Source: a virus
Reading direction: 5' to 3' (one strand)
Virus record (IMG/VR): IMGVR_UViG_3300045988_098109
Length of the DNA: 56,471 nucleotides
A program made the position numbers and the translations under genes. The notes under the pieces are model-generated. The model ran no database searches. It worked only from the letters and a program-made list of their open reading frames with translations, and was not told the origin of the DNA. Of this stretch, positions 11,795-31,389 are shown piece by piece (within the stretch, counting starts at the first letter, position 1; every line of letters begins with the position of its first letter).

Positions 11795-11795
11795 G

Positions 11796-11885: not shown

Positions 11886-11893
11886 TACCTTTG
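11886..11893 (+). promoter_or_regulatory. Bacteroidota-type -7 box (TACCTTTG)
   Basis: Matches TAnnTTTG and lies 19 nt upstream of the ATG at 11912. Confidence 0.4.
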
Positions 11894-11911
11894 CTTCAAA
11901 ATAGATTATAT

Positions 11912-17031: not shown

Positions 17032-20000
17032 GCGATTCTGTTGACATATTAAAGAAACTGGCTCTTCAAGTAAGAAACGCATCTACAGAAGGAGAGAATA
17101 CAGCTGAAAGGATTGGGCGCATATTTATCGGGATTCTAGAAAACATGGATAATTCCGATTTAGAAAAGCTCACCAAATACTTTTTGCGCAAAGACAAGGA
17201 GGATTCTACAAATTTTCTTTTATCATTATTGGGCGGAACTGTCATTAAGAAATACGCCAAGTTCGGTGATTTCGTTACTGGTGTATTAGGTGGATACATA
17301 GACGAAAAGGGCAATCTTGAAATGGAAAGCGGTGTATTTCGTAAGCGTTTGTTTGTTCCTGAAATAGCTTATAACCGTACAACCTATTTCAAAGGACGTA
17401 TGGTAAACTCCCCCGGTGGTGGTTGTACCGTATTGTCATACGTGGATAACGGCGATGGAACCTACACCATCACTCCCGATCTGACGGATGCGGACGGATT
17501 GAGCCAGTTTGTTGATGACATCCTTACCACCTATTTTGTGACTAAAAATAGCGAAGGCAAGCTGAACGGCTTTGAAGAAATGAAATTCCGGGTGACTGCC
17601 GCAGATTATACAGCCAAGAAGTTTACTGTCATTCCCCGTCCGGGGCATTCTGACTGGAAACCTGCCGAGCAGATGGTATTGGCACAAACAGGTAACTTTA
17701 CGGACCCGGAACGTCAGACTTATATACTTATTGATTCAGTCAACGGAAATAACTGTATTACATTCTTTGACAATGCCAACACTTGGGACCCGGAGCCGGC
17801 ACAGATGAAGAGCTGGTTCGGCAAGAAGAAGGGTATGACTGTAGCCGGTATTAATGCGGACAGTTACTCAGCCGTTCTTCAGAACATCATCATGACCGGG
17901 CTTATCTTTCAAGTTGATGAGATCACCGGACAGACAGTTCGTGTACCCTTGGACAAGGGTGAATGGGTTTCAGGTAAGTACGCCTACTATGACCGGGTGT
18001 CACATAACGGGGCTTTGTGGTTGTGTGTTGATGATAATGGAACAACAACAGAACCGTCAGATGATAATCCGGCATGGCTGAAACAAGTGGCGGAAGGGCA
18101 AAAAGGTGATCCGGGATTGTCCGTAGTAGGTGGCGGTCATTGGGAATCCTCCAAAACCCCGTACAAAGCCAATACAATGGTCACTCTTGCCAACTGTGTC
18201 TTTTTATCCAAGGTGAAGACATCCAATCCTCCCATCAGGATCGCAAGGTTCAGGAATGGCAGTTATCGTCGCAAAAAGGATAGCGGTTATATCCTTGCCG
18301 GGAAGTCAGCCGACTGGACCGTGCATGAAGATTGGGAGATACTGCTGGACGGTCGTGAACTTAAAGGTGAGAGCATCACCTTTCTAGGTGAGTTCGCATC
18401 CCATCCGTCCAATCCCAAGGAGGGTGACAGCTACCGAAATACGGCTGACCATTGTACTTACATATACCGGAATGGTTTGTGGATGGTCATGGTCAAAGAC
18501 GGAACTGACGGTAAGGACGGCAAAGGTTACGAGTGGATCTACACCCGTACCAACATCATCGGCCTTACCCCTGACAAGCCGGAATCGAAGCAGCAGGATG
18601 ATTATATACCGGAAGGCTGGACAGATGATTTTCTTGGCGTGGATGCCGACCATCAGGTGGAATGGGCGTGCAAACGTGTGAAGCGTGATGGAGTATGGAG
18701 TGAATGGAGCACTCCGGCCCCTGTGCACCGTTGGAGTAAGGACGGGGAGTCGAATGTCATGGCAGACCTTGACAATGAGATGGTGAGCGTCGCTCTTACC
18801 AGTACCGGCGTTACTACTTCCGCACAGTCATGGACTACCCATGTGTCCATGTGGTACGGTACCGAGAAACTCACCCTTGAATCTTTGACAGTCAGCACGC
18901 CTGCCGGTTTCACGGCAAGCACAAGCAAGGCCACCGGAGCGGTGGCGATATCCGTCGCTGCCGGAAAGTCGGTTCCGGAACAGAATACGGTCACCATCAC
19001 ACTGGCTGCAATGAAGAACGGGCAGCTCTATACCCGTGAACTGACTTTCAAGATAACCGGTGTCCGTGGCGGGGCGGACGGTTCCGATGCGGTAATTTAT
19101 AGCCTTGTCACTTCGGCCACGATGGTCAGCAAGAACAAGAACGGCGGTTACAGTGTAGCTTCGGTATCCTGTCGGCGTATGAAAACAGTCGGTGCGGTCA
19201 CTACGGCCACAACGGACGGGGAGTTGAAGTACAGTCGTGACGGTGCGGCCGAGGTTCCCATCGGTGATGGTGTCGGGGTGGCTTCCGGTAATTTTACCAG
19301 TAGCTTGAAGTTCGTGTTCTACGTGAACGGTCAGGCGGTTGATGTCGAAACTGTCCCGATGGTTGTGGACGGCAGTGACGGAAAGGATGGTGAGAGCATC
19401 ACAGCAGCCGGTCATTGGGAATCCGCCAATACTCCGTATGCCAAGAACAGTACAGTATCGTTTGCCGGAGGATCTTACTTAAGCAAGGTTGAAACCTCCA
19501 ACCCTCCTATTAAAATCGCCAAGTTCAGAAACGGCAGACTCCGCAGGAAAAGAGACGGCGGATACATCCTCGCCGGCAGATCTGCGAACCGGACGGTACA
19601 TGCGGACTGGCAGGAGATGGTTGCCCCCGTCGGACCGTCGGCATCCTACTGGCTGGACAGTCCTGTCAGCGTGATCAACTTCACTTCAACAGGCACGCCA
19701 TCCCCGTCTGGATTCCTTGTCACTTGCAAACAGAATGTGGCAGGCAATGTAAGCACGTGCAGCACGCTTTATCTGGCAGCCCGCAAATACAACGGAAGCT
19801 GGCTGGCTCATGTAGGTGCGACACTGAACAGCCAGATATCCGTACCTGCGACAGCCGGATACACCCAGTTTGCCGTCCGGGCTTATAAATCAGCTTCCGA
19901 TGCTGCTGCTTGGAATGACAATTATGTGGCCGAGAAGGGTGTGGGTGTTGCAAATGATGGTTCCATAGGAGCAACAGGAGCTACGGGTGCGTTCCCTTAT

Positions 20001-20711
20001 GACAGAGGTGTATGGGCTTCCGGACAGACATACGTATGGAATGCAAAACAGCGTGACAAGATCATTCACAAAATAGGTGAAGTTTATTACAATTTTCTTG
20101 TGCGCAACTATGGAAGTTCTGTATCAGCGGCTCCTACATCCGCTAACGGAGATTCCAACTGGGAAGCCATGCAGAAATACAAAAGTCTGGTAACCGACAT
20201 ATTCCTTGCTGATAAGGCGAACATAGCCGGATTTATGTTCAAGTTGAACGGATACACATCGGACGGGGCACCTTACGGTATCATGCAGTCACAGGACAGC
20301 ACTAACGGCCAGCCTAATCTGAGGATGGACACAAAGACCGGAGAGATTCTTTGTCAGAAAGCGAATATCACCGGGACTATCATAGCGACAAAGGGGACAA
20401 TTGGCGGATTCAATATCGGTAATAATTTTATCGGCAGCACTAATATGTCGGCTGTAAATGTTGATAATTTGTTGCTGCAATACGACAAATTTGAAATGAA
20501 ATACGAACGGTTCCAGTCAATAGACGGACATTTATACCAAGGTATTTTGGATACAGTAATTAGAAGTGGAAGTATAACTGTATCATCAACCGGGGATGTT
20601 TCAACAGCGAATGATGCTCTGTATGTAAGATGTGGAAGTTATATTTTTTCAGTCGGGCGAAACGGAATTCGCAAGTCAACGAATGGAGGAAGTACCTGGG
20701 TGGATTTATAA
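17028..20711 (+). CDS. Tail fibre / receptor-recognition protein
   Basis: 1227 aa, collinear with residues from about 590 to the end of the 1811-aa protein at 25874-31309 (FLLSLLGGTVIKKYAKFGDFVTGV...). It contains an internal duplicated module, GHWES..TPY..N..V......YLSKV.TSNPPI. Confidence 0.75.
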   Translation: MSDSVDILKKLALQVRNASTEGENTAERIGRIFIGILENMDNSDLEKLTKYFLRKDKEDSTNFLLSLLGGTVIKKYAKFGDFVTGVLGGYIDEKGNLEMESGVFRKRLFVPEIAYNRTTYFKGRMVNSPGGGCTVLSYVDNGDGTYTITPDLTDADGLSQFVDDILTTYFVTKNSEGKLNGFEEMKFRVTAADYTAKKFTVIPRPGHSDWKPAEQMVLAQTGNFTDPERQTYILIDSVNGNNCITFFDNANTWDPEPAQMKSWFGKKKGMTVAGINADSYSAVLQNIIMTGLIFQVDEITGQTVRVPLDKGEWVSGKYAYYDRVSHNGALWLCVDDNGTTTEPSDDNPAWLKQVAEGQKGDPGLSVVGGGHWESSKTPYKANTMVTLANCVFLSKVKTSNPPIRIARFRNGSYRRKKDSGYILAGKSADWTVHEDWEILLDGRELKGESITFLGEFASHPSNPKEGDSYRNTADHCTYIYRNGLWMVMVKDGTDGKDGKGYEWIYTRTNIIGLTPDKPESKQQDDYIPEGWTDDFLGVDADHQVEWACKRVKRDGVWSEWSTPAPVHRWSKDGESNVMADLDNEMVSVALTSTGVTTSAQSWTTHVSMWYGTEKLTLESLTVSTPAGFTASTSKATGAVAISVAAGKSVPEQNTVTITLAAMKNGQLYTRELTFKITGVRGGADGSDAVIYSLVTSATMVSKNKNGGYSVASVSCRRMKTVGAVTTATTDGELKYSRDGAAEVPIGDGVGVASGNFTSSLKFVFYVNGQAVDVETVPMVVDGSDGKDGESITAAGHWESANTPYAKNSTVSFAGGSYLSKVETSNPPIKIAKFRNGRLRRKRDGGYILAGRSANRTVHADWQEMVAPVGPSASYWLDSPVSVINFTSTGTPSPSGFLVTCKQNVAGNVSTCSTLYLAARKYNGSWLAHVGATLNSQISVPATAGYTQFAVRAYKSASDAAAWNDNYVAEKGVGVANDGSIGATGATGAFPYDRGVWASGQTYVWNAKQRDKIIHKIGEVYYNFLVRNYGSSVSAAPTSANGDSNWEAMQKYKSLVTDIFLADKANIAGFMFKLNGYTSDGAPYGIMQSQDSTNGQPNLRMDTKTGEILCQKANITGTIIATKGTIGGFNIGNNFIGSTNMSAVNVDNLLLQYDKFEMKYERFQSIDGHLYQGILDTVIRSGSITVSSTGDVSTANDALYVRCGSYIFSVGRNGIRKSTNGGSTWVDL

Positions 20712-20729
20712 CATTTAAAATATTAAAGT

Positions 20730-21023
20730 ATGAGAATAAATTTTGCACAATTTCCTATTTACGACGGGATTAAGAAAGAAAAACTGATAGCCAACAACAT
20801 CACTGAGGCCTACGGTGACTGGATATACAAGAACGTAGCGGGTTTGAAGGCGCATCTCCTTGCTGAGAAGATATTCAAATCTACTGCTGAAGGTGTCGAG
20901 ATTGACGAAGAAGAGGTGGATATCATAAGACGCTCCACCTCCATGCTGCCCGGTCTGCTGGCTGATTCTTTGAATGATTATTTAGATAAAAAGGAGGAAC
21001 AACATGAAAAAAGTATATTGTAA
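20730..21023 (+). CDS. Conserved fibre-module protein (97 aa)
   Basis: MRINFAQFPIYDGIKKEKLIA... is about 90 percent identical to 25572-25859 on the opposite strand. Confidence 0.6.
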   Translation: MRINFAQFPIYDGIKKEKLIANNITEAYGDWIYKNVAGLKAHLLAEKIFKSTAEGVEIDEEEVDIIRRSTSMLPGLLADSLNDYLDKKEEQHEKSIL

Positions 21024-21423
21024 CAACCTTCTGGCAAAGGTGCTGCTTGCGTTCAGTTCTTGCCATACGATAACAATCGGTCCGTTTGTTTTAAGCAAGC
21101 GACCGGAAGAGAAAATCACTCAGAAAGTGAGAAACCATGAGTGTACCCACGCCCGTCAATGGGTTGAGATGGCAGTTGCCATCGGTACAGTTATCTGGAT
21201 CTTGCTGTTGTGTTTTGACCTTTCCGCCTGGTGGCTGGTACTGGCCGGGCTGGCATTCTATCTCTGGTATGGTGTGGAGTGGCTGGTCAGGGCGGTACGG
21301 TTGAAGGATGCCGGCAGGGCGTATAAGACGGTATCGTTTGAGAGGGAGGCATATTCCAACGAGGATGATCCGAATTATATTGAGAACAGTAATTATTTTG
21401 CATGGGTGAAGTATTTGTTTTAA
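21004..21423 (+). CDS. HExxH-motif membrane protein (putative metallopeptidase)
   Basis: HECTH motif plus a FEREAYSNEDDPNY tail, homologous to 24864-25361 (HETIH...YEMEAYANEGNPDY). This copy carries an inserted hydrophobic hairpin. Confidence 0.5.
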   Translation: MKKVYCNNLLAKVLLAFSSCHTITIGPFVLSKRPEEKITQKVRNHECTHARQWVEMAVAIGTVIWILLLCFDLSAWWLVLAGLAFYLWYGVEWLVRAVRLKDAGRAYKTVSFEREAYSNEDDPNYIENSNYFAWVKYLF

Positions 21424-21439
21424 TTTTAAAATTTGCATT

Positions 21440-22117
21440 ATGGACTTGAATAATATAGTTGGCTTTAAAGCTGTGGATAAAAACGGCAACGAACGACAGG
21501 TGACCGTCGATGAGATGACAGAATTAGTTTCCGCACGGATTGTTTCCGCTGCATCAGAAATATCAACATTTGCTGCCGCTGCGGCAGCCGGAACAGATGA
21601 GTTTGAGGACCAGTTGCCCCAGTCCGACACCTTCTCTTGGCTCCGTACTTTGGACGGTTCCAAGAACCCAACTTTGACATCTTCTTCGGCTGCCGCGAAA
21701 GTCCTGGGAGGACTTTTGCCGCTTGCCAGTATTACATCAAAGGGGCTAATCAGCGGATTGATTGTGTTTAATGCCTACATTTCTTCTACTACGACATGTG
21801 TTTTAATAGAAGGATCATTTAATGAATCAGGAGGTATGGGTGTCGTTAATTTGGATTTCCGACCTTATGGTATGGCATCGTATTCCATTTCATTGTTCAT
21901 TGATTCTGTAGTGAGAGCTTCCGTTATAAACGGAACCAATAAAAATTCTTTTTCCATTTACTATTTAACGGAAGGTGGTTTGATAAGAATCAAAATCATA
22001 TTTATATACGATGGTCCTATATCAATGGTAGCAAGAGGAAACAACACTGTCATTAAATCCATCTCTAAATCCGAAAATTTAGATACAAATGGTTTTAATA
22101 AAGTAACAATATCTTAA
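21440..22117 (+). CDS. Small receptor-binding tip protein A (constant N-terminus plus variable C-terminus)
   Basis: The N-terminus MDLNNIVGFKAVDKNGNERQVTVDEM...STFAAAAAAG is homologous to gene B (24160-24852). The C-terminus after LGGLL (junction 21704) is unrelated. Confidence 0.7.
   Translation: MDLNNIVGFKAVDKNGNERQVTVDEMTELVSARIVSAASEISTFAAAAAAGTDEFEDQLPQSDTFSWLRTLDGSKNPTLTSSSAAAKVLGGLLPLASITSKGLISGLIVFNAYISSTTTCVLIEGSFNESGGMGVVNLDFRPYGMASYSISLFIDSVVRASVINGTNKNSFSIYYLTEGGLIRIKIIFIYDGPISMVARGNNTVIKSISKSENLDTNGFNKVTIS
21704..21714 (+). repeat. Cassette junction repeat J_A (CTGGGAGGACT)
   Basis: Matches 11 of 12 positions of the core CTGGGAG(A/G)ACTG at the constant/variable boundary of gene A. 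Confidence 0.7.
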
Positions 22118-22456
22118 CAAATATCAAAGAAAACCGACCTGGGAGAACTGCTGGAAAATAGATTGGTAAAATATAAGGAAATGAATCTTGGAGCAAATGA
22201 GATAATAGATACTGGTGCGAATACAGGATTAATACGTTTTAAAATTAATGCAACATCTGCATCATGTGTGTTTTTTTGCAATTCAGGATCATCTAATATA
22301 ATGCTAATAACACAGAATGTCGATAATTATTTTACAACCAATAAATCTTCTAATAGTGAGAAAATAGCTATTTATAAAGAGTCTGACAACGGTAACATTT
22401 TAATAAAGAATCTAACAGCCATTAACTATGGAACTTTTGTGTTTTATTACATATAA
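22118..22456 (+). other. Silent tip cassette C1 (no upstream start)
   Basis: The frame opens directly after the gene A TAA stop and reads QISKKTDLGELLENRL.... The only starts are internal (TTG at 22163). Confidence 0.6.
22134..22150 (+). repeat. Junction repeat J1 (CCGACCTGGGAGAACTG)
   Basis: 17 nt identical to J3 at 22772-22788. Confidence 0.85.
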
Positions 22457-22468
22457 GATCTCAGATAA

Positions 22469-22756
22469 CTACTTCTGGGAGGACTGATAGGAATAAATAA
22501 TACGTGGTTTAGAACACGAAGTCAATATAAAGGAAGCATACTACAAGCCCCAACCGGTATATACCGACCTGCCCCGGGCGTTATTACTGACACCCTTTCA
22601 GGGGGTGGACTTATTCTAGTTTTTAGGATGGACGATAATAATGCTTGTGTTTTTCAAGTGACCGGGAATGGCATCTTAGCTGTTCGTACAATGAATGTAA
22701 ACAACGGTAAATGGAGCGACTGGGATACAATAGCTAATCCAAGTTTTCCAACATAA
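22469..22756 (+). other. Silent tip cassette C2 (no start codon)
   Basis: A 95-codon open frame reads LLLGGLIGINNTWFRT...NGKWSDWDTIANPSFPT. Its first ATG is at codon 54. It is absent from the ORF track. Confidence 0.6.
22472..22486 (+). repeat. Junction repeat J2 (CTTCTGGGAGGACTG)
   Basis: Core plus the CTTC-type flank shared with J4 and J6. Confidence 0.85.
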
Positions 22757-22761
22757 TATAG

Positions 22762-23052
22762 TGCCACAAACCCGACCTGGGAGAACTGTTGGGGATAAAT
22801 GATACGTGGTTAAGGTTCAGAGATCAGAAAGAAATAGAATCTCAAGACGAATTAGATCAGATGAATTATAGCGGAATATACTTACTATCACAAAAATCAA
22901 AATTAGAATATGTCCGTAATTGTGTATTAGTTGTAATCGGCAAACCTAATATCTGTTGTATTCAGAATCTATATAATTATAGCGGAGATATTTATAAATA
23001 TCGAGTGAAATGGTTTAGTAACAGTTGGGGTAATTGGCAAACCGTATCTTAG
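22762..23052 (+). other. Silent tip cassette C3
   Basis: The open frame reads CHKPDLGELLGINDTWLRF...WGNWQTVS. The only start is the TTG inside the junction (22789). Confidence 0.6.
22772..22788 (+). repeat. Junction repeat J3 (CCGACCTGGGAGAACTG)
   Basis: Identical to J1. Confidence 0.85.
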
Positions 23053-23060
23053 ACATGATT

Positions 23061-23096
23061 AAAAAACGGGTGGTCCGGTACAAGCCGGTGCCACCC
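23061..23096 (-). terminator. Hairpin terminator at the convergence point
   Basis: GGGTGG-T-CCGG-TACAAG-CCGG-TG-CCACCC. The T-run (AAAAAA on the + strand at 23061-23066) follows the hairpin only on the minus strand. Confidence 0.6.
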
Positions 23097-23145
23097 GATC
23101 CTGATATGCACAACGCCATGTGCGGTGCAAAGGTAATCCATGTTT

Positions 23146-23433
23146 CTAAGAAGCCAATACAAAAGACCTAAAATCTCCCCATTCCCCATTATAATTACGG
23201 CGGAAACCAACAACATCCTCACCTAGACGGAATGTCATTTGAATGACATATCCTTGTCCATCGTTAAAAACTATCATTATGGAATAATTTGAAACAACAC
23301 TAATTCCGTTTCGTCCGAATACATGATACATTCCGCTTGCAGTTGCACTATTTACCTCTTCGTCTGTACTTAATATACCTTTGGGCATAAACGGGAACAG
23401 CTTCAAACCGTTCATTAGTCCTCCCAGAAGTAA
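23146..23433 (-). other. Tip cassette C4
   Basis: Reads LLLGGL-MNGLKLFPFMPKG...NGEWGDFRSFVLAS. An ATG lies immediately after the junction, so it could be expressed alone. Confidence 0.55.
23417..23430 (-). repeat. Junction repeat J4 (CTTCTGGGAGGACT)
   Basis: The reverse complement of AGTCCTCCCAGAAG. Confidence 0.85.
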
Positions 23434-23441
23434 AAAATAGT

Positions 23442-23732
23442 TTACTTGTGCGCAATATTCCTTACTCTGACAGATTCTTCTCCTGATAAAGCCGTTGCGT
23501 ACAAATGGCTTTCTTGTACTCTAAATTTAATCCTATAATTTACTCCTCCTAATACATATGAATTATCGTAATCAATTACGACTAAAGTTGACACGGAATC
23601 TAGATAGGAATTTGAAACGTAATAAACACCAGTACCATTAGCTATTAGTGTTTCTTCTCCTTTTGCTAAAGTGAAAGAACTATAGGTATTCCCAATCAGT
23701 CCTCCCAGGTCAGTGCTATATCTTTTGTCACG
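23442..23732 (-). other. Silent tip cassette C5 (no start codon)
   Basis: The frame opens directly after the C6 TGA stop and reads RDKRYSTDLGGLIGNTYSSFTLAKGEE...RNIAHK. It is absent from the ORF track. Confidence 0.6.
23697..23711 (-). repeat. Junction repeat J5 (GACCTGGGAGGACTG)
   Basis: GACC-type flank, as in J1 and J3. Confidence 0.85.
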
Positions 23733-24159
23733 TCAAGATATTGGTACTTCAATCGCCCCACTAGGAATAGCATTGATTGATTCTATTTTGCTCGTGTTCA
23801 CAAGACCTAATCGTGACACTATTATTTTCGCATACCAATTAGCTTTTATGTAAAAGCAAAATCTTTCTGTATCAACTGTATAATACATATTAATGTTACT
23901 AATTTTGGTTCCGTTTATCAATTTACAAAAGACTTTATTTGCATTCCATCTAATCATAGACACTGCGACTGAGAACGAGTCTCCACCAACATTTGTAACA
24001 CTAATTACAGACTCATTTATTGATCCGGCATTTGGCATAAATACACTAATCTTACAATATTGATTATTATCTTTAGATAATTCTAAAGGTACCATACCGG
24101 AACTCATCAACCCGCTTTTATTTGATGTTGCATTCCCAATCAGTTCTCCCAGAAGTGGA
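23733..24159 (-). other. Tip cassette C6 (long type)
   Basis: PLLGELIGNATSNKSGLMSSG... parallels gene B, KLGELIGTATANKNGLMSK. The only in-frame ATG is downstream of the junction. Confidence 0.6.
24141..24155 (-). repeat. Junction repeat J6 (CTTCTGGGAGAACTG)
   Basis: Core plus the CTTC flank. Confidence 0.85.
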
Positions 24160-24852
24160 TTAATCAGGTGTAGGTGTAATTATTTCACCTGTAATATTGG
24201 AAAAATCAGAAAAGTCTATTGTTAAGAAATTCGGTCTTGTTCTTCTAACTAATGATACCTTATACGAGATGGAAGAATCATCCGACTTAGGTAACACATA
24301 CAATTTACTATTTGCATATTTAAAATCGCACCAATGCGCCCCCATATATTTTATTTCTATGTTTTTAGATCCAGTAGGTATTGACATCACTCTATAAAAT
24401 GCAGTATTAGCTCCCGAATAGACATATATTTCTATCAACGAAGAAGAAGTATATAAACCATTAGAATCAGCTTTATAGTCAATAATCAGACCTTTTCCTC
24501 TTTCTATATCAGTTACTACAAATATTTTACTCATTAATCCATTCTTATTAGCCGTAGCTGTACCAATCAGTTCTCCCAGTTTTGATGCAAGCGACTGCAT
24601 CGTCATTTTTGCCGCATCTCCGCTACTTTGTAAAACTCTTACATTTGCGGCATCCGTCACTGTCGGAAGTTCATTCTCATACACGTCATTTCCTGTTGCC
24701 GCAGCGGCGGCAAATGTTGAAGTTTCAGACAAAGCCATAACCATTCTTGTGGAAACCATATCCACCATTTCATCTACTGTCACATTTTGTTCGTTGCCGT
24801 CTTTATCCACAGCCTTGAAGCCAACTATATTTTCTAAATTCAAATCACTCAT
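24160..24852 (-). CDS. Small receptor-binding tip protein B (constant N-terminus plus variable C-terminus)
   Basis: The start at 24852 (MSDLNLENIVGFKAVDKDGNE) was chosen by homology to gene A. The junction KLGELIG is at 24568-24579. Confidence 0.7.
   Translation of the reverse strand: MSDLNLENIVGFKAVDKDGNEQNVTVDEMVDMVSTRMVMALSETSTFAAAAATGNDVYENELPTVTDAANVRVLQSSGDAAKMTMQSLASKLGELIGTATANKNGLMSKIFVVTDIERGKGLIIDYKADSNGLYTSSSLIEIYVYSGANTAFYRVMSIPTGSKNIEIKYMGAHWCDFKYANSKLYVLPKSDDSSISYKVSLVRRTRPNFLTIDFSDFSNITGEIITPTPD
24568..24579 (-). repeat. Junction repeat J_B (CTGGGAGAACTG)
   Basis: Exact core inside gene B. Confidence 0.85.
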
Positions 24853-24863
24853 AATATCAATTT

Positions 24864-25361
24864 TTATAAAGTTCTTATATAAGTTTTCCACGCTTTAGAA
24901 GTGCCGCCAACCGATTTGTACAGCTTCTTCCTACCACCTTTTATCTTGTAACGGGAAAGGTTGTTCCCGTTATAGTTCACGGGATAATCCGGATTGCCTT
25001 CGTTGGCATACGCCTCCATTTCATACGGAATGGTATAATACGCTGAACTCGCAGGATGGCAGATAGGGTTTCCCTTAACCCATTCGACAAAATACCGCCA
25101 GTAGTATTTTACCCATGAGCCGATAACCTGTGCCTGACGCAGGTGTATGGTTTCGTGCGTCAGGCTTTCCTTACCCGCATAGGTCTGCATATACCTATCT
25201 ATGTTCTCCTTGTTCTCGGCACGGTATATCATCCGTCCGCACCACATCATGAAACGGTATCCCTTGAAAGGATAATGCTTCATGGCAAGCAGCTCAGGAG
25301 TATCAAAATCACCCGGCTTGCTTGAGAACAGCATCTTGATTAATTGCCATAATTCTTTCAT
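24864..25361 (-). CDS. HExxH-motif protein (putative metallopeptidase)
   Basis: 165 aa with HETIH...YEMEAYANEGNPDY. Homologue of 21004-21423 without the hydrophobic insert. Confidence 0.5.
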   Translation of the reverse strand: MKELWQLIKMLFSSKPGDFDTPELLAMKHYPFKGYRFMMWCGRMIYRAENKENIDRYMQTYAGKESLTHETIHLRQAQVIGSWVKYYWRYFVEWVKGNPICHPASSAYYTIPYEMEAYANEGNPDYPVNYNGNNLSRYKIKGGRKKLYKSVGGTSKAWKTYIRTL

Positions 25362-25582
25362 AGCGTTTCTATTTCAGATTCAAGTTCAGCGATATGGTTA
25401 TCAATACACGTGCTCACCTCGCCATTGAAGTTTGCTATATCCAGTTCCACGCATCCGGCACTTGACCGGGCGCTGCTGTAGATACGGACATAGCCTCCGT
25501 TATTCAATGTTTCCTTAGCCAGCTTCAGTTTCGCCAGTTCGTCATTGATCCGGCTGGCACGTTCCAAATTCTCAATCTTCAT
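25358..25582 (-). CDS. Hypothetical coiled-coil protein
   Basis: Start MKIENLERAS preferred. There is no counterpart in unit L. Confidence 0.45.
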   Translation of the reverse strand: MKIENLERASRINDELAKLKLAKETLNNGGYVRIYSSARSSAGCVELDIANFNGEVSTCIDNHIAELESEIETL

Positions 25583-25859
25583 GTTGTTCCTCCTTCTTTT
25601 TATCCAGATAATCATTCAATGAATCGGCCAGCAAGCCGGACAACATAGGGGTAGAACGTCTTATGATATCCACCTCCTCTTCGTCAAGTTCCACACCATC
25701 TACAGTCGACTTGAAGATTTTCTCCGCAAGGAGATGCGCCTTCAAACCCGCTACGTTCTTATATATCCAGTCACCGAAGGCCTCAGTGATGTTACTGGCT
25801 ATAAGCTTTTCTTTTTTAATCCCATCATAAATAGGGAATTGTGCAAAATTTATTCTCAT
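25572..25859 (-). CDS. Conserved fibre-module protein (95 aa)
   Basis: Homologue of 20730-21023. Confidence 0.6.
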   Translation of the reverse strand: MRINFAQFPIYDGIKKEKLIASNITEAFGDWIYKNVAGLKAHLLAEKIFKSTVDGVELDEEEVDIIRRSTPMLSGLLADSLNDYLDKKKEEQHED

Positions 25860-25873
25860 ACTTTATATTTAAA

Positions 25874-28800
25874 TTATCCGCAATAAAACATAACCCAATA
25901 ATTACCCATACACTTAATGAAGCCGGATGCAAAATCCAAATCAATATAAGACACCTCCCGTCCTCCGGGAGCAGGCAGGATCCGTCCTCCTGTCAATCTT
26001 ACTCCGCCGCTCATACGTTTGAAGTATATAGTATGTCCCGGAACATCCGGAGGAAGTGTCACTTCTATATTACCCGTATTAATAAACATCACATTGTCAT
26101 CATTGTTATTCAGGGAAGTGCTGACAGAGATATTCCTCCAGTTGCCAACTATGCCACGAAGAGAAACATAGCTGTCATTGTTCGGATGAAGGAAAATGTT
26201 ACCGCCTTCCACGAACAGGGGAATGCTCGGGGTCTTGATGTGCATCCCGATCATGGCATTCGGACTCTGTATATCAATTCCGGCATCATACTTAATCCCT
26301 TCAATAGTGACAAACTGCGTGTTTCCCCCGATTCTTACGTTTGCAAATGTCCTTTCATTATAAAATTCAATTTGCCCGGCAGACAGGTTGAAACCGACGT
26401 ATTTATTTGTTTCATTTTCATAAAGGATCTTTGAGGACAATACTCCCGAAGCGATGGAGAACGGACCGATACGTCCTTTATCCGCTGTGATTGTTCCTGT
26501 AATCTCTGCATTCTTACATTTGAAATACCCGGTTACGCCATTGATAAGAAGAGTTTCACCTTCATCGTTGTGGGATTTAAGCACATTGTTTTTGAACATG
26601 AAGCCGGCTACATTCGCACCATCGGCAAACAGGGTGTCAGTAGCGATATTCACAAACTTCTGCATGGCTTCCCAGTTCGAATCCCCGTTGGCTGATGTGG
26701 GTGCAACGGTAACGGAAGCACCGTAATTCTTTACAAGGAAATTATAATAAACTCCCCCTATCAGATATATGACCTTATCCCGGTAATCCGCATTCCAGAC
26801 ATAAGTCTGTCCTGATGCGAATACACCTCTGTCACGGGGAAACGCCCCTGTTGCTCCTGTTGCTCCTATGGCACCATCATTAGCTACACCCACCCCTTTT
26901 TCAGCGACAAAATTATTATTCCATGCGTTCGCGTCCGATGCGGATTGATAAGCCCGGACGGCAAACTGGGTGTATCCGGCTGTCGCTGGAACGGATATCT
27001 GATTGCTTAGGGTAGCACCTACATGAGCCAGCCAGCTTCCGTTATATTTCCGTGCGACAAGATAGAACCTGTTCGTATCGCTCACATTGCCGCCTACATT
27101 CTGTTTCATGGTAACGACAAACGCTGACGGTGACGGTGTGCCTGTTGACGTGAAGTTTATCGTGCTTACCGGGCTGTCAAGCCAGTACGAAGCGGACGGT
27201 TCGACACCGGAAGTCATTTCCTGCCAGTCGGAGTTGACAGCCTTGTCCGATCTCTTCCCGGAAAGTATGTAACCGCCATCCTTCTTCCTTAGATAACGTC
27301 CACCTCTCACGCGAAGAAGCGGAAGTGGCGGATTGGATGTTTGAACCTTGCTTAAGTAAGATCCTCCGGCAAACGATACTGTACTGTTCTTGGCATACGG
27401 GGTATTGGCGGATTCCCAATGACCTGCGGCTGTGATGCTCTCACCGTCAGCACCGTCCTTACCGTCAGAAAGCATGGGAACGGTTTCAACATCCACTATC
27501 TGGTCATTCACGTAAAAGATAAACTTCAATGTCTTCGTAAAGTTTCCGCTTGATATGGCTGTATTGTTGTTTATGGTAGCTTCTGCTCCACCGTCTATGC
27601 TGTATTTCAATGTACCGTCTGTTGTGGTGGATATTACGCCTCCCACTGACTTCTGCCTGTAACATGATACGGAAGACACGCTGTAGTTCCCGTTCTTGTC
27701 CTTGCTTACAGAAGTGGCGGAAACGACAATGCTGTATAGAATGGCATCCGCACCATTCGCTCCCCCACGCACACCAGCTACTGTGAATGTCAGATCACGG
27801 GAATACTGCTGCCCGTTCTTTGTAGCCCTGATTGTGATCTTCACCGTGTTTGTCGCAGCAAGAGTAGCTCCGGCAGATACCGATATTGTCACTACTCCCG
27901 TATTCTTGTCTGTCGCACACAGAAGATTTGTGTCAGGTGTACAGGTGATGCTGTCAAGCGTGAGCTTCTCCGTTCCATACCACATACTGACAGTTGTATT
28001 CCAAGTCTGTGAGGATACGACCTTCCCGTCTGAAGTAAGGGCTGCATTGACCATCTCGTTATCGAAGTCCGCCATGATGGCATTCTCTCCGTCCTTACTC
28101 CAGCGATGCACCACGGCAGGAGTGCTGAACTCTGACCATACACCGTTTTCCTTGAAACGCTTGCAGCCCCATTCAACCTGATGGTCTGCGTCCACGCCAA
28201 CAAAATCATCCGTCCAGCCTTCGGGGATATAATCATCCTTCTGCTGGCTGTCAGGCTTTTCAGGAGGATTATCTATGATATTGCCTCTTGTGTATATATA
28301 CTCATAGTCCTTACCGTCTTTTCCGTCCGATATCATAAGCTGCCATCTTCCGTCCTGATAGATGTAGGTAGCACGGTCAGTCGTGTTACGGTATGAATCA
28401 CCGTTTTTCGGATTGGCAGGAGCCGTGGCAAATTCACCAAGGAAAGTGATACTCTCACCTTTCAGTTCACGCCCGTCAAGCAGCATATCCCAGTCTTCGT
28501 TAACCTCCCAGTCCGCAGGTTTCCCGGCAAGATAATAACCACCGTCCTTCTTTCTTAAGAAATTGCCACCTTTGATACGCAATATTCTGATGGGAGGATT
28601 GGAGGTTTCCACCTTGGAGATAAAAACACAGCCCGCCAAAGTGACCATGGTATTGACCTCGTATGGGGTCTTAGAGGATTCCCAATGACCGCCACCTATT
28701 ACAGACAGTCCCGGATCACCCTTGTCACCTTTGGCGGCTGATACAAGCCAGTCCGGATTGTTTTCGGATGGCTCGGAAGTAGTGCCCTTGTCATTGACGC

Positions 28801-31309
28801 ACAACCATGTGGAACCGTTATGGGGCACACGGGAATAATACGCATACTTCCTGCCCGGCTCCCAGCTAGGGAAGTCGATAGGAACGCGGACTGTGCTACC
28901 GGTAATTTCATCAATTTGAAAAATCAATCCCGTCATGATGATATCCTGCAATACTGCCGAGAACCTGTCGCAGTTGATCCCGTTGATGGTCATACCCTTC
29001 TTCTTGCCGAACCAGCTCTTCATCTGTGCCGGCTCCGGGTCCCAGGTGTTGGCATTGTCAACAAGGGTGATGCAGCAGTTACCGTCACGCACGTCTATGA
29101 TGATATAAGTCTGACGCTCCTTGTCGGTGAAGTTCCCCGTCTGTCCGAGACGCATCTCGTTATGGGGAACGAACTCATATCCGGGACGCGGAACCATCAC
29201 GAATGTCTTCTCGTCGTAATCTGCGGAAGTGATACGGTACTGTATTCTCCGGAAACCAATAAAGTCACCGGTAGTGACGCTTTTGTCATGCCAGAAGCCT
29301 AGGAGGATATCGTCCGGCTTCTGTCCCAGCGGTACACCATCCTCCAGATCAGGGATGACAGTATAGCTGCCGTCACTATTGGCGACAAAGCTTTTTATCT
29401 TCAGCCCTCCGCCGGGACTTATAGTATTATATCCTTCAAAATAGGTCTGACGGTTGAAACGAAGTTCTGGTACACTCAGAGAGCTGCGCAGGACCAAAGC
29501 CTCCAGCTCGGCACGGGCGTCCTCACCGATGTAACCTCCAGAAACACCGGTAACGAAATCACCGAACTTGGCGTATTTCTTGATGACGGTTCCGCCCAAC
29601 AGGGATAATAGGAAACCGGTGCGTTCCTCCGTATCCTTGCGCATGAACATGATCAGCGAGCGCAATGCGGAATACACGTTATGGTCTGTTGCTGGGGTGG
29701 AGTCGTGGCTTCCGATCACATACACACCGCTGCCACCACCGCCCGTATAGGTCTGTCCCTTCAGGGTAAGGCTCTCAACCTTTTCCTCCAGCTCCCCGAT
29801 ACGGGAATAGGCGGCGGTTTCCCCGACAGTATAAACAGGTGAGTCAAAGGAATAATCAAGATTGAATTCAAATCCGATAACCCTTGACTGTCTTCCGTTC
29901 TCGAAATAAGCCTTGTTGATAAGGTTGACCTTTTGACCGATGCTATAGAAATTATGAACGCCATCCTCACGGTATGCGTCATTTGACATCATCGTGCAGC
30001 CATAGGTACTCGGGTCTATCTTGGATTTGGCAGCGTACTTTTCAGTCTTTTCCTTCAACTCCTGCTCGGCGGCACCCACAAGCCCCAGCTCGGTTATTTT
30101 CGTACTGTCCCAGCCGGAAAGCACATATTCATCTCCATCCTGGGGAAAGAGCACATCACCGGGAAGCGGTCTGCCATAGTCCTCATTCCTGACTATCTCC
30201 CAAAGCTGTGCCTCAGGGTTCCATCCGCCATCCTCCAATTTCTCCGGCTTTCCCTCAGGATTGAACTTCACGGCAAACTCCAAACCGTTGAGAAGCCCGG
30301 ATGCGAAACGTATCCTCAGCTCCTGACCGGGGAGGATATATTTCTCGGAAAAGTTAACACCCGTGTCCCTAAAGCGGTAGGCATTCCATTTTTCCTCGGT
30401 GGTTGTGCCGTCCTCATTCTCCACCTTGTCCGTCACTTCGATAGTGGTGACATCCGACATGATGCCTGTTCTTCGAGGATAGACTTCATCGAAGATAACC
30501 ACCTGCTCGACGGCTTCCTCGGTAGTCATATCAGGATAAGCGTCAATGTAAGGAGTGCCTTCGGGAAGCATCAGCCTGCGCTGCACCACGCCGTTCACAA
30601 CCACGGTCTCGTCAACCGGACGGTAGTCAGATGGGATATTCTTTGTTGAACCAAAAGCGTAGATACGGGTGGCATAAGTGGACCGGGATTCTGACTGTGA
30701 CATTTCCTGCACGTTTTTCCCGATTTCGAAATCCACCGCATCGCCAGACTCACAACGTCCGAAATGGATGATGTTTTCAGTCACCCAACATTCGCAATCC
30801 CATTTCTTCGCCATCTCAAAACAAGCGTCAAGGATGTTGATGTTATCGTAACTCATCAACTGGGACTTGTTTTCGACTGTGGAATCAATGGAGAAAACAA
30901 AATCCTGTCCTTTGTATGTGTAACCAAGAGCTTTCAAATTTCTAAGGACTATACCGGCTTGTACGTCAAGCGGGGCGGTCAGGTTCCAGGACGCCTCCTG
31001 TCCGGTCGTCTCCGGGGTATATTTGAAGATTTTGTTTTTCCATTTCCAGTAGTAGGCGTCAAGTCTTAATTCGTAATCGTAGCCGGCGGTATTGGTGTTG
31101 AATGCGGGCTTCTGCAAGTCGCACATCTCGAACAATCCGAAGTTACATTCCACGTATGAGCCAAGTTTGAAATATATGGGATTCTCTAAGGAGAACTTTA
31201 ACATGATGTAGTCCTCCTTCATCAGAGTGAACTTACGCTTGCAGCCTTCATTGATCAAAGTTGTAAGCTGGATAGCACCGGATATGTCTTTGATGTCGAT
31301 TTGTTCCAT
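25874..31309 (-). CDS. Tal-like tail tip protein fused to a long fibre
   Basis: 1811 aa from the ATG at 31309; the ORF-track start at 31366 overlaps a terminator. The N-terminal roughly 570 aa are Tal/tail-tip-like. The remainder is collinear with 17028-20711. Confidence 0.75.
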   Translation of the reverse strand: MEQIDIKDISGAIQLTTLINEGCKRKFTLMKEDYIMLKFSLENPIYFKLGSYVECNFGLFEMCDLQKPAFNTNTAGYDYELRLDAYYWKWKNKIFKYTPETTGQEASWNLTAPLDVQAGIVLRNLKALGYTYKGQDFVFSIDSTVENKSQLMSYDNINILDACFEMAKKWDCECWVTENIIHFGRCESGDAVDFEIGKNVQEMSQSESRSTYATRIYAFGSTKNIPSDYRPVDETVVVNGVVQRRLMLPEGTPYIDAYPDMTTEEAVEQVVIFDEVYPRRTGIMSDVTTIEVTDKVENEDGTTTEEKWNAYRFRDTGVNFSEKYILPGQELRIRFASGLLNGLEFAVKFNPEGKPEKLEDGGWNPEAQLWEIVRNEDYGRPLPGDVLFPQDGDEYVLSGWDSTKITELGLVGAAEQELKEKTEKYAAKSKIDPSTYGCTMMSNDAYREDGVHNFYSIGQKVNLINKAYFENGRQSRVIGFEFNLDYSFDSPVYTVGETAAYSRIGELEEKVESLTLKGQTYTGGGGSGVYVIGSHDSTPATDHNVYSALRSLIMFMRKDTEERTGFLLSLLGGTVIKKYAKFGDFVTGVSGGYIGEDARAELEALVLRSSLSVPELRFNRQTYFEGYNTISPGGGLKIKSFVANSDGSYTVIPDLEDGVPLGQKPDDILLGFWHDKSVTTGDFIGFRRIQYRITSADYDEKTFVMVPRPGYEFVPHNEMRLGQTGNFTDKERQTYIIIDVRDGNCCITLVDNANTWDPEPAQMKSWFGKKKGMTINGINCDRFSAVLQDIIMTGLIFQIDEITGSTVRVPIDFPSWEPGRKYAYYSRVPHNGSTWLCVNDKGTTSEPSENNPDWLVSAAKGDKGDPGLSVIGGGHWESSKTPYEVNTMVTLAGCVFISKVETSNPPIRILRIKGGNFLRKKDGGYYLAGKPADWEVNEDWDMLLDGRELKGESITFLGEFATAPANPKNGDSYRNTTDRATYIYQDGRWQLMISDGKDGKDYEYIYTRGNIIDNPPEKPDSQQKDDYIPEGWTDDFVGVDADHQVEWGCKRFKENGVWSEFSTPAVVHRWSKDGENAIMADFDNEMVNAALTSDGKVVSSQTWNTTVSMWYGTEKLTLDSITCTPDTNLLCATDKNTGVVTISVSAGATLAATNTVKITIRATKNGQQYSRDLTFTVAGVRGGANGADAILYSIVVSATSVSKDKNGNYSVSSVSCYRQKSVGGVISTTTDGTLKYSIDGGAEATINNNTAISSGNFTKTLKFIFYVNDQIVDVETVPMLSDGKDGADGESITAAGHWESANTPYAKNSTVSFAGGSYLSKVQTSNPPLPLLRVRGGRYLRKKDGGYILSGKRSDKAVNSDWQEMTSGVEPSASYWLDSPVSTINFTSTGTPSPSAFVVTMKQNVGGNVSDTNRFYLVARKYNGSWLAHVGATLSNQISVPATAGYTQFAVRAYQSASDANAWNNNFVAEKGVGVANDGAIGATGATGAFPRDRGVFASGQTYVWNADYRDKVIYLIGGVYYNFLVKNYGASVTVAPTSANGDSNWEAMQKFVNIATDTLFADGANVAGFMFKNNVLKSHNDEGETLLINGVTGYFKCKNAEITGTITADKGRIGPFSIASGVLSSKILYENETNKYVGFNLSAGQIEFYNERTFANVRIGGNTQFVTIEGIKYDAGIDIQSPNAMIGMHIKTPSIPLFVEGGNIFLHPNNDSYVSLRGIVGNWRNISVSTSLNNNDDNVMFINTGNIEVTLPPDVPGHTIYFKRMSGGVRLTGGRILPAPGGREVSYIDLDFASGFIKCMGNYWVMFYCG

Positions 31310-31328
31310 GTCTTCAAAGTTCGGGGAT

Positions 31329-31358
31329 AAAAAAAAGAGTGCCCAATTTTGAGCACTC
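31329..31358 (-). terminator. Rho-independent terminator
   Basis: GAGTGC-loop-GCACTC followed by T8 on the minus strand. Confidence 0.65.
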
Positions 31359-31361
31359 ACA

Positions 31362-31389
31362 TACACGACAATAAAACCAATGTCGTGAA
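31362..31389. promoter_or_regulatory. Palindrome TACACGACAAT-N-AATGTCGTG
   Basis: Member of the CACGACAAT/ATTGTCGTG palindrome family (also 42517 and 50452). Confidence 0.5.

Follow-up and report, generated by a model that had tools for sequence, protein, structure and literature searches.

A two-ended tail-fibre cassette array, probably a hybrid of two BV01-like phage shufflons of Phocaeicola vulgatus

Organization of the locus

The window, by which the whole 56,471-nucleotide stretch of viral DNA analysed is meant (IMG/VR virus record IMGVR_UViG_3300045988_098109), contains two full structural modules (two terminases, two portal-type genes) and is bounded by an inverted repeat whose right copy is the reverse complement of the left at 99.1% identity, the outermost 99 nt being exact. 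Between two tail modules lies an array of eight cassettes flanked by the convergent genes A and B (Table 1), each of which comes after large fibre genes. The N-termini of A and B are homologous, as the sequence-only reading had proposed, with 53% amino acid identity across about 88 aa and about 75% identity in DNA. The A constant region is 96-100% identical to those of many A-type contigs, which bear other cassettes past 21714; many contigs end 20-60 nt past the B constant region. The gene order of the left tail module precedes the array likewise in isolate genomes, and that of the right module recurs in B-type prophages.

Table 1. Features of the cassette array, its flanking tail modules, and the ends of the window
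Feature	Coordinates	Strand	Remarks
Terminal inverted repeat S, left copy	1-351		3' end of ASCH gene common to both phages; bounds contig
Left tail module upstream of A	17028-21423	+	1227-aa fibre, 97-aa protein, 139-aa HExxH protein (phrog_15610)
Gene A constant N-terminal region, 88 codons	21440-21703	+	Expression site of left A-type phage arm; ORF 21440-22117
Site JA (21704-21715) and cassette Avar, now fused to A	21704-22117	+	Core match, in-frame frame
Site J1 and silent cassette C1	22139-22456	+	Core match, in-frame frame
Site J2 and silent cassette C2	22475-22756	+	Core match, in-frame frame
Site J3 and silent cassette C3	22777-23052	+	Core match, frame; half of tail-to-tail unit C3><C4
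GC-rich terminator-like hairpin at C3/C4 tail-to-tail junction	23067-23097		T-run then on - strand
Silent cassette C4 and site J4 (23416-23427)	23146-23427	-	Core match, in-frame frame
Silent cassette C5 and site J5 (23697-23708)	23442-23708	-	Core match, in-frame frame
Silent cassette C6 and site J6 (24141-24152)	23733-24152	-	Core match, in-frame frame
Cassette Bvar and site JB (24568-24579), now fused to B	24160-24579	-	Core match, in-frame frame
Gene B constant N-terminal region, 91 codons	24580-24852	-	Expression site of right B-type phage arm
Right tail module upstream of B	24864-31366	-	1830-aa fibre, 95-aa and 85-aa proteins, 165-aa HExxH protein
Terminal inverted repeat S, right copy	56121-56471		Partner of 1-351

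Matches to CTGGGAGRACTG with at most one mismatch start at the eight site positions of Table 1, four on each strand, with J4 beginning at 23416 and not at 23417 as first given; two unrelated one-mismatch matches lie elsewhere in the window. The core CTGGGAGRACT(G) is present in eight copies within 3.4 kb, compared with 0.22 by chance (shuffles: mean 0.22, maximum 2). Read from the core, all eight sites lead into an in-frame LGE/GL... frame, 88-139 codons long and closed by a stop, and in the list of open reading frames C1-C3, C5, and C6 have either no start codon or just internal ones; the earlier description of an eight-core array with start-poor cassettes between convergent genes is thus upheld. 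The cassette bodies are also unrelated, as had been claimed, with no kinship detected by BLASTP except that C6 and Bvar have their first 27 aa in common and C2 and C3 their first 17.

The Leu and Gly codons of the core are fixed in all eight window sites, an observation that concerns these eight, the sites of related loci having been chosen by exact core match. The conserved part of the site is asymmetric, 11-14 nt long, and has no dyad, and the left arm is variable. The alternation of GACC and CTTC 5' flanks is only apparent and does not belong to the sites themselves, since GAC and CTT are the 3' tails of the preceding cassette modules, with which they move. Core positions 8 and 12 go with the cassette and not with the 5' flank, placing the exchange within CTGGGAG. 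At the junction of C3 and C4, folding of 23045-23150 gives -40.7 kcal/mol (z = -4.7), and none of 200 shuffles is as stable.

Permutation of cassettes among related arrays

The window cassettes recur, at 93-100% identity, in 139 related arrays in other orders, in other orientations, and behind other constant regions, and every breakpoint among related arrays falls in the core. Homology of the window to related contigs ends exactly at cores (e.g., at 21714 and 24563-24579), and the junctions reveal modules, each composed of the right part of the core, a cassette, a stop, and a tail, that are recombined at the core, with only about 11-20 identical nt shared at breakpoints. Many contigs break at sites, and modules that are 99-100% identical are permuted across samples. 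The layout, a constant region followed by forward and then inverted cassettes, const> (>)n (<)m, is violated by none of the 139 distinct arrays, and L003 and L031 (L numbers denote related loci) are exactly one inversion apart, between the constant-region site and an inverted cassette site. Comparison of related genomes, suggested earlier as a check, yields permutations and inversions and no static order, and the identical modules, the confinement of breakpoints to the core, and the L003/L031 pair support the shufflon reading. There are at least 72 cassette families. Complete arrays, from constant region to recombinase (n = 52), contain 2-14 cassettes each, a range which indicates that loss and gain also happen by some route.

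The proposal that the two expression sites share one pool of cassettes is likewise substantiated. Avar, fused to A in the window, is a silent cassette in the B-type arrays L002, L266, L268, and L272 and is fused to B in L464 and L467; Bvar, fused to B in the window, is fused to A in L008-L012 and is silent in many arrays. By count, 15 cassette families are found on both constant types. For C6, fusions to B are present in L049, L051, and L429, and fusions to A in L262, L419, and L432; C1 is seen elsewhere in fused, silent plus-strand, and silent minus-strand states. Most related arrays with C3 and C4 have the two side by side and pointing at each other, in one orientation or the other, the exceptions being a few arrays in which one has another partner (e.g., C3><F49 in L059 and C4><F24 in L039). 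Hybrid A/B constant regions, switching at STFAAAAA, are also present among the relatives.

The array-adjacent recombinase

No recombinase domain was found in any sizeable window ORF with Pfam, no Resolvase (serine recombinase) domain in any window ORF scanned, and no match to the recombinases of relatives in a tblastn search of the window. In ordinary relatives the array ends at a tyrosine recombinase of 406-414 aa (PF00589) with Arm-DNA-bind_5, Phage_int_SAM_5, and Phage_integrase domains, and in most complete arrays 60-525 nt separate it from the terminal site; beyond it are lysis genes and then a second, att-side integrase beside host genes. The recombinase types adjoining the terminal site are only 56-99% identical among themselves, and the gene tables list PF00589 recombinases only, with no serine recombinase next to related arrays. 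NCBIfam searches gave XerC/D-type matches below threshold, a weak tyrosine-invertase match (E = 7e-6), and no match of the array-adjacent recombinase to a named invertase family above cut-off. Its adjacency to the arrays makes this tyrosine recombinase the candidate enzyme acting on the sites. The earlier suggestion of an off-window enzyme is supported, and that enzyme would be the phage tyrosine recombinase next to ordinary arrays and not a serine invertase. BV01 codes for three PF00589 genes, the att-adjacent one being the excision integrase (PMC8354205). At L256, a 65%-identical recombinase is located beside a host SusC/SusD pair abutting the phage array; no site common to this SusC/SusD locus and the phage array was found.

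A probable shufflon of BV01-like phages

A tail-fibre shufflon of BV01-like (Salyersviridae) phages of P. vulgatus is described in a Res Sq preprint of September 2026, in which a directional 10-bp motif, TGGGAGAACT, separates the cassettes (PMC13596623). Inversion at this motif is shown at read level, so the shufflon is active, and all configurations are present in reads within single experiments; the array covers 1.7 kb and has a single expression site, three cassettes, and six variants (PMC13596623). All eight window sites contain TGGGAG(A/G)ACT. The prophage locus of ATCC 8482 (L287/L411), which is BV01's own array, has an A-type constant region and a C4><C3 unit in the order A> F5> C4> <C3 <F12 <F28 INT>, and aligns to the window fibre regions and the protB/const segment at 85-95% and to C3><C4 at 97%. 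We consider it probable, at roughly three chances in four, that BV01-like temperate phages of Phocaeicola vulgatus carry this locus as a multiple-inversion system (shufflon) and that the window carries a two-phage hybrid array.

In the mechanism proposed, a tyrosine recombinase would exchange DNA inside the invariant heptamer CTGGGAG, which codes for the LG of LGE/GL, using as partners the site that ends the constant region and any oppositely oriented site before a promoterless cassette. The product is a small distal tail-fibre protein whose first 90 aa or so are constant, and with each inversion it would gain a different C-terminal domain, 85-145 aa long. These domains are presumably receptor-binding and set receptor specificity, a role taken from gene position and the preprint annotation (PMC13596623) because the structure model of B has a pLDDT of only 37. 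Ordinary genomes have the order const> (cassette>)n (<cassette)m, after which come the recombinase gene, the lysis genes, and, separately, an att-side integrase. In the window, by contrast, a B-type array with all eight cassettes would have acquired, at its far end, an A-type tail arm with its constant region. The same kind of site-specific recombination, here between arrays belonging to two prophages or phage genomes present together, would have made the join; the window's lack of a recombinase would be a consequence of this hybrid nature. Both expression sites would use one pool, with recombinase genes elsewhere acting in trans, and the hybrid array would probably still be active.

Origin of the two-ended layout

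Two-ended arrays depart from the usual design of the family and are probably derived, as hybrids between the arrays of two phages. In L266 and L268, which are single-ended B-type arrays, every one of the eight window cassettes is present, along with F5, F7, and F12. Arrays with a constant region at each end (const-const) include those of the window type (L242, L243, L245, L265, and L516) and L246, L362, L432, and L467. They were assembled with MEGAHIT, SPAdes, and Logan, and since they recur in at least five configurations, in independent samples and with three assemblers, the layout is probably real. All examples are metagenome contigs or scaffolds, none having been found in a closed isolate genome, and the exact A-Avar junction is absent from the JGI-based metagenome collection and from IMG/VR. 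One array, L278, is of the INT-INT type expected as the reciprocal product; this sole INT-INT contig folds back on itself at the right end and could in part be an artefact.

There is an even chance that the shufflon sites are recombination points between phages and not just within one phage. If so, the recombinase crosses over between the arrays of two BV01-like prophages in one P. vulgatus cell, so that receptor-binding cassettes are pooled and const-const and INT-INT hybrid arrays are made, the chromosome segment between the prophages is inverted or deleted, and tail, lysis, and integration modules are reassorted. This would explain the mosaic pairing of constant types with recombinase types in the relatives.

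The shufflon could also be real and its two-ended form a frozen relic, left behind when a deletion joined two directly oriented sites, one in each of two prophage arrays lying tail to tail, with loss of both recombinases, lysis modules, and integrases, such that the fused element no longer shuffles or excises. No recombinase, lysin, or integrase lies between the window arms, the window-type arrangement is 99.9-100% identical in L242, L243, and L245, which come from several samples, as for a stable clonal lineage, and array sizes of 2-14 show cassettes gained and lost. A relic is nonetheless unlikely, as const-const arrays with the same or 96-100% identical A and B constants occur in at least four orders (window, L246, L432, and L467), and L246 and L432 hold cassettes foreign to the window array (F5, F7, F12, F22, and F42), which would require more exchange, with some other array, or else several independent origins. 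P. vulgatus genomes also often have more than one such prophage (L256 and L257 share one chromosome), which makes a recombinase acting in trans plausible. It is more doubtful still that the layout is an assembly chimera, in which the assembler crossed between co-occurring phages via near-identical cassettes such as C3><C4. The duplicated structural modules, the ending of both window edges in a repeat common to the two phages, the single-ended, recombinase-bearing form of most relatives, and the absence of the A-Avar fusion from IMG/VR would be in keeping with this, but the arrangement was recovered at 99.9-100% by both MEGAHIT (k119_1443, 56.7 kb) and metaSPAdes (NODE_1272, 11.6 kb, cov 23) and occurs in Logan (ERR525736) and in a 98-kb scaffold (L516) from different studies. 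Other samples supplied four more const-const configurations, one of them L432 with a coverage of 107. De Bruijn unitigs halt at branching repeats and do not pick a path, and the A-const/Avar partners share about 12 nt, too short to mislead assemblers at k >= 31.

The fallback offered earlier, in which the short motif serves homologous recombination or gene conversion and no dedicated site-specific recombinase takes part, is very improbable. Constraint on the protein could keep the motif conserved, since it is coding (LGE/GL), and the hybrid A/B constants show that homologous recombination does occur nearby; however, the identity shared at breakpoints (about 11-20 nt) is a poor RecA substrate, and the Leu and Gly codons are fixed in the eight window sites. 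The layout kept in 139/139 arrays is that predicted by inversion-only site-specific exchange, a tyrosine recombinase gene is conserved beside the terminal site across types only 56-99% identical, and all configurations appear in reads within single experiments (PMC13596623).

Biological implications

Gut Bacteroidales hosts have phase-variable capsules and surface proteins, and a phage-side shufflon with dozens of interchangeable, presumably receptor-binding ends would be a direct counter-strategy. Such shufflons are very common in human gut metagenomes, and in the index of the contig collection the genes neighbouring the array appear in thousands of sample blocks. To judge from the two-ended arrays, prophages living in one cell may be able to pool and swap receptor-binding ends at the same sites, which would provide a route for host-range exchange between phages and a source of large chromosomal rearrangements and of prophages unable to excise. 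In practice, assemblies break at shufflon loci, and both virus binning and host-range prediction may be misled by them.

Comparison with known inversion systems

The R64 shufflon has asymmetric sfx sites with a GTGCCAA core, the Rci tyrosine recombinase, and PilV C-termini as its target. The arrays of the relatives share with the R64/IncI1 system a tyrosine recombinase gene adjoining a clustered multiple-inversion region, whereas the window lacks it in cis. Also shared are asymmetric sites with a short invariant core, one partly conserved arm and one variable arm, the fusion of alternative C-terminal segments to one constant N-terminus by inversion, and the inversion-only behaviour reflected in the 139 arrays. 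In contrast to R64, the target here is a phage tail-fibre protein and not a conjugative pilus adhesin, the recombinase has Bacteroidota-type Arm-DNA-bind_5/Phage_int_SAM_5 domains, the core (CTGGGAG) is unlike that of sfx, and exchange would also take place between arrays on different replicons or prophages.

Mu G/Gin, P1 C/Cin, and p15B Min similarly switch the C-terminal receptor-binding part of a tail fibre by inversion between opposed sites, and p15B Min also has multiple sites and cassettes. Gin, Cin, and Min are serine invertases with 26-bp sites and a Fis-dependent enhancer, whereas no serine recombinase is present in the window or beside related arrays, where the adjacent enzyme is a tyrosine recombinase. 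The sites also differ, being asymmetric, 11-14 nt long, and without a dyad, compared with the 26-bp imperfect-dyad Gin/Cin/Min/Hin sites with a 2-bp overlap. Host Bacteroidales systems (Tsr-type invertases, SusC/SusD, and type I R-M hsdS shufflons) share the phylum, the recombinase superfamily, and the swapping of parts of surface or specificity proteins, but the present system is phage-borne and acts on a virion protein.

Closest is the BV01-like shufflon (PMC13596623), which shares the phage group, the host, a recombinase flanking the array in ordinary genomes, and the target, the 3' end of a small tail-fibre gene downstream of a large fibre; TGGGAGAACT falls inside the window core CTGGGAGRACT. 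The window differs in having eight sites, eight cassettes, two convergent expression sites, and two phages, with no recombinase in cis, and the relatives here have up to 14 cassettes and at least 72 families, compared with the three cassettes of the preprint (PMC13596623). The kind of system is already known, and the two-ended hybrid, the at least 72 cassette families, and the proposed inter-phage exchange are the new details.

An eight-site cassette array between two probable tail-fiber genes

The interval spanned by the convergent small, putative tail-fiber genes A and B (21440-24852) contains eight copies of the core CTGGGAGRACTG with at most one mismatch, compared with a chance expectation of 0.22 on average and a maximum of 2 in dinucleotide-preserving shuffles of the window. 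Translation from every core gives an open frame that starts LGE/GL and continues for 88 to 139 codons up to a stop. Two of these frames are the variable parts of A and B (Avar and Bvar), joined to constant N-terminal regions, and the remaining six, the silent cassettes C1 to C6, have a start codon that is absent or internal only. These core counts and start-less in-frame frames confirm the cassette array proposed in the sequence-only reading, and seven of the site positions are as it listed them, with only site J4 shifting, to 23416 from 23417. The N-termini of A and B are homologous, as claimed, with 53% identity over 88 to 91 residues. The cassette bodies had been described as unrelated to one another and none are related by BLASTP, but the first 27 residues are common to C6 and Bvar, and the first 17 to C2 and C3. 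The array is divided by one tail-to-tail junction, where C3 meets C4; all plus-strand sites are to its left and all minus-strand sites to its right, and it contains a strong hairpin rich in GC (-40.7 kcal/mol, z = -4.7). Scanning the region for sigma-70 promoters and terminators gave no excess over the shuffled background, Bacteroidales promoters being outside the scope of the scan.

Features of the cassette array and of the two arms of the window
Feature	Position (nt)	Strand
Gene A, 3' part a core-opened frame	21440-22117	+
Core sites, left of the C3/C4 junction	21704, 22139, 22475, 22777	+
Core sites, right of the C3/C4 junction	23416, 23697, 24141, 24568	-
Gene B, 3' part a core-opened frame	24160-24852	-
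Left arm, start: ParB-like genes, small terminase, 438-aa large terminase		+
Left arm, next: tape-measure-like protein, ClpP-type protease, capsid-like protein		+
Left arm, end: DUF6712 protein, 1227-aa fiber, 97-aa protein, 139-aa HExxH protein, then A		+
Right arm, as listed: intein-containing large terminase, SPP1-type portal, head fiber		-
Right arm, next: Tad2-like protein, 1607-aa tape measure, Dit-like protein		-
Right arm, end: 1830-aa fiber, small proteins, 165-aa HExxH protein, then B		-
Right-arm large terminase	44950-47145	-
Right-arm Tad2-like protein	38427-38927	-
Right-arm head fiber	40946-41797	-
Terminal inverted repeat	1-351 and 56121-56471	
Second stretch common to both ends	452-564 and 54854-54966	

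Cassettes are permuted among related loci

Searches of IMG/VR, ENA, NCBI, Logan, and JGI contigs with A, B, the neighboring proteins, and the recombinase as queries recovered several hundred related loci. INPHARED phage records gave no match (megablast of 20700-25900; tblastn of B), and BV01 relatives are apparently absent from that collection. A scan of GTDB species representatives yielded only one short P. vulgatus contig (L241), which is consistent with assemblies breaking at the array. Many contigs stop no more than a few tens of bases from a core, and contig ends clustered at a site are the usual assembly signature of within-sample heterogeneity.

The window cassettes are present in these relatives with 93 to 100% aa identity, in other orders and orientations and with other constant regions upstream. 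Junction sequences show C6 after the Bvar tail in the window, Avar there in locus L002, and C4 in L003; the C1 tail leads into C2 in the window and into C6 in L001. The compared sequences diverge exactly at the core in all of these cases. The mobile unit is thus the right part of the core together with the cassette, its stop, and a short tail. The sequence-only reading had noted alternating GAC and CTT flanks 5' of the cores; the flanks are present, but each is the end of the preceding module's tail, which accounts for the apparent alternation. Homology of the window to single-ended relatives, which have a constant region at one end and the array-adjacent recombinase gene (INT) at the other, stops at 21714 on the A side (JA) and at 24563-24579 on the B side (JB).

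There are 139 distinct arrays with two or more cassettes, and none (0/139) violates an arrangement in which the constant region is followed by cassettes in its own orientation and then by cassettes in the opposite one. Complete arrays, running from constant region to recombinase, number 52 and contain 2 to 14 cassettes (median, 6). Cassettes over all loci form at least 72 families at 70% identity, with those other than the window's carrying F-numbers. Fifteen families, including Avar, Bvar, C4, and C6, are fused to constants of both the A type and the B type, the two phage types that contribute the left and right arms, and 41 different cassette starts are joined to the A-constant flank and 25 to the B-constant flank. 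Loci L003 (B> Bvar> C4> <C3 <C6 <F33 INT>) and L031 (B> C6> C3> <C4 <Bvar <F33 INT>), with > and < denoting orientation, are one inversion apart, between the constant-region site and the inverted site before C6, which is exactly the event predicted by a shufflon model. That model also requires C3 and C4, whose 3' ends face each other with no intervening site, to stay together during inversion inside one array, and they do so in most arrays having them, in either orientation; in a few (L059, L039) C3 or C4 is paired with another cassette. The permuted order anticipated in related genomes is therefore found, and together with the breakpoints at cores and the L003/L031 inversion it supports the proposed shufflon-like nature of the array. 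In loci L033 and L020 the constant regions are hybrids, A-type over the N-terminal half and B-type over the C-terminal half, with the switch at STFAAAAA; this pattern indicates that homologous recombination acts inside the constant part, beside site-specific exchange.

The crossover site

The invariant part of the site, as selected, is CTGGGAG-R-ACT. Position +13 is a T in 98% of sites, and the 5' side is conserved at -3/-2 only (GA or CT), and because this conservation is one-sided the site is asymmetric, with no dyad. Conditional entropy at core positions 8 (A/G) and 12 is 0.35 and 0.12 bits, respectively, given the cassette body, and 0.85 and 1.31 bits given the 5' flank. These positions segregate with the cassette and not the 5' flank, which places strand exchange inside the heptamer CTGGGAG, and a length of 7 nt suits a tyrosine recombinase overlap region. 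The sfx sites of R64 likewise have a short invariant core and one conserved arm.

The window joins two phage arms

The window is not one ordinary phage genome but two convergent phage structural arms, and the left and right tail modules are diverged inverted copies with 71 to 87% identity. Its ends are reverse complements of each other over 351 nt (99.1% identity, the outermost 99 nt exact). The repeat corresponds to the 3' end of an ASCH gene, located upstream of the late genes in both phage types. The window is apparently one complete JGI metagenome contig, as a 243-aa form of B is on record with a longest contig of 56,471 nt. De Bruijn assembly of a unique stretch flanked by inverted repeat copies gives a contig ending in the repeat on both sides. 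The second stretch common to both ends is 96% identical.

The arms and their relatives have several further features. The right-arm large terminase (731 aa) contains an intein after the nuclease domain (Intein_splicing, PT-HINT, Hint_2), and the B-type early region has intein-bearing NinG-like genes as well. A 166-aa protein coded amid the structural genes has a Tad2-like (Thoeris anti-defense 2) domain (E = 3e-18), and a very strong match to the phi29-type head fiber family (PF11133; E = 3e-109) is located within what is a Bacteroidales siphovirus-like arm. Among A-type prophages, L252 has an SNF2 helicase gene split by a group II intron reverse transcriptase (954-2762), and L258 has an IS110 transposase between the fiber gene and the 97-aa gene (8552-9517).

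Origin of the two-ended array

All eight window cassettes, together with F5, F7, and F12, are present in the single-ended B-type prophage array L266 (NCBI GCA_964242095.1), which is organized as B> Bvar> C1> Avar> C3> <C4 <F5 <C5 <C2 <C6 <C5 <F7 <F12 INT>, and all eight are also in a second single-ended B-type array, L268. Avar, which had earlier been named as A's C-terminus, is thus a cassette of the B array. Among the loci collected here, fusion of the A constant to Avar occurs only in const-const contigs, those with a constant region at both ends, and the exact junction has no matches in the JGI-based metagenome contig collection. One crossover joining JA from an A-type phage to an inverted site in a B-type array would generate exactly the window structure, and could occur through inversion between two directly oriented prophages, deletion between inverted prophages, or cointegration of two circular genomes.

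It is unlikely that the two-ended layout is an assembly artifact, as the window-type arrangement is recovered at 99.9 to 100% identity by three assemblers (MEGAHIT ERZ27239384 k119_1443, 56,684 nt; metaSPAdes ERZ1742040 NODE_1272; Logan ERR525736) and in a 98-kb scaffold (L516), there are four other const-const configurations, and the partners have only ∼12 nt of sequence in common at the junctions. The other configurations are L246 (A> Avar> C4> <C3 <Bvar <C6 <F5 <B), L432 (13 cassettes, with A fused to C6, at a coverage of 107), L467 (B fused to Avar and A fused to F22), and L362, which has different arms and cassettes. A crossover origin also predicts a reciprocal product, an array bounded by a recombinase gene at each end, and L278, the only such contig, hints faintly at it; after the recombinase, its right end (9132-12479) contains the lysis module and a second copy of the recombinase 3' end, reversed, and represents a fold-back chimera or else another rearrangement.

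Arrays with the same or nearly the same (96 to 100%) A and B constants differ in cassette order, and F5, F7, F12, F22, and F42 are present in some const-const arrays with matching constants, which suggests that exchange may have continued, catalyzed in trans. Several independent origins of const-const arrays are possible. In the low-coverage contig L244 (1-1724), an opposite-strand ECF sigma-factor gene abuts a truncated left-arm DUF6712 gene, suggesting that a truncated or rearranged version of the A arm is joined to the same const-const array.

The array-adjacent recombinase

Domain searches identified no recombinase domain in any sizeable window ORF, and there is no homologue of the array-adjacent recombinase in the window; the relatives carry this tyrosine recombinase next to the array, in agreement with the earlier suggestion of an off-window enzyme. 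In L003 it is a 414-aa ORF with an R...HxxR...Y signature that starts ∼60 nt past the terminal cassette site, and homologues with 56 to 99% identity are in the same position in most complete arrays. In genomes from isolates and long reads their annotation lists the domains Arm-DNA-bind_5, Phage_int_SAM_5, and Phage_integrase, and the enzyme falls in no named NCBIfam family above cut-off. From its adjacency we infer that this gene codes for the shufflon recombinase. To its 3' side are a small gene, an endolysin (Peptidase_M15_3, or GH108 plus PG_binding_3), and more small genes, beyond which a second integrase (384 to 413 aa) is coded on the other strand, adjoining host genes (DUF4286, RuvC). 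This gene order places the array-adjacent enzyme internal to the prophage and distinct from the att-side integrase. BV01 is reported to have three PF00589 genes, of which the att-adjacent BVU_RS14130 is the one needed for excision (PMC8354205).

The recombinase-proximal flank was considered as a constant-less second expression site, with ATG-CTT before the core giving MLLGGL..., and was rejected because the ATG is present in one of ∼6 flank types. Two loci depart from the usual organization at the distal end. In L256 (13700-20420), from the 2.84-Mb P. vulgatus chromosome GCA_024789925.1, the array abuts a SusC/SusD gene pair followed by a tyrosine recombinase with 65% identity to that of the phage, replacing the usual recombinase and lysis module, and no core sites were found beyond the array. 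In L269 (7000-16987), the array of a B-type arm is shortened and the arm continues directly into a type I restriction-modification locus. This locus has two HsdS genes and a small tyrosine recombinase of its own, and so resembles a second shufflon, of another kind.

Host, function, and relationship to the BV01-like shufflon

We give the host as Phocaeicola vulgatus on the basis of source names and one genome match. An IMG/VR contig from genome 640753008, which we take to be P. vulgatus ATCC 8482 and so BV01 itself, has the array A96> F5> C4> <C3 <F12 <F28 INT> and aligns with both window tail modules at 85 to 97%. A and B are likely distal receptor-binding components of the tail fiber, judging from gene position, C-terminal variability, and the preprint annotation "carbohydrate-binding tail fiber protein" (PMC13596623). 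Pfam and PHROG contain no family for A or B, and the only match for the HExxH neighbors is phrog_15610, annotated as "protease"; modeling of B with AlphaFold2 on an alignment of 11 sequences (pLDDT 36.7, pTM 0.33) gave too poor a structure for use.

The family is the recently described BV01-like tail-fiber shufflon. [quoted passage not shown] The TGGGAGAACT motif is the centre of the window core, and the BV01-like shufflon is presumably driven by the adjacent tyrosine recombinase exchanging within CTGGGAG. The kind of system, its basic mechanism, and this very motif are thus already known, if very recently. The size of the cassette pool, like the evidence for exchange between phage arrays, goes beyond the preprint, and what is new is a two-ended hybrid array that joins the tail modules of two different phages, without a recombinase in cis.
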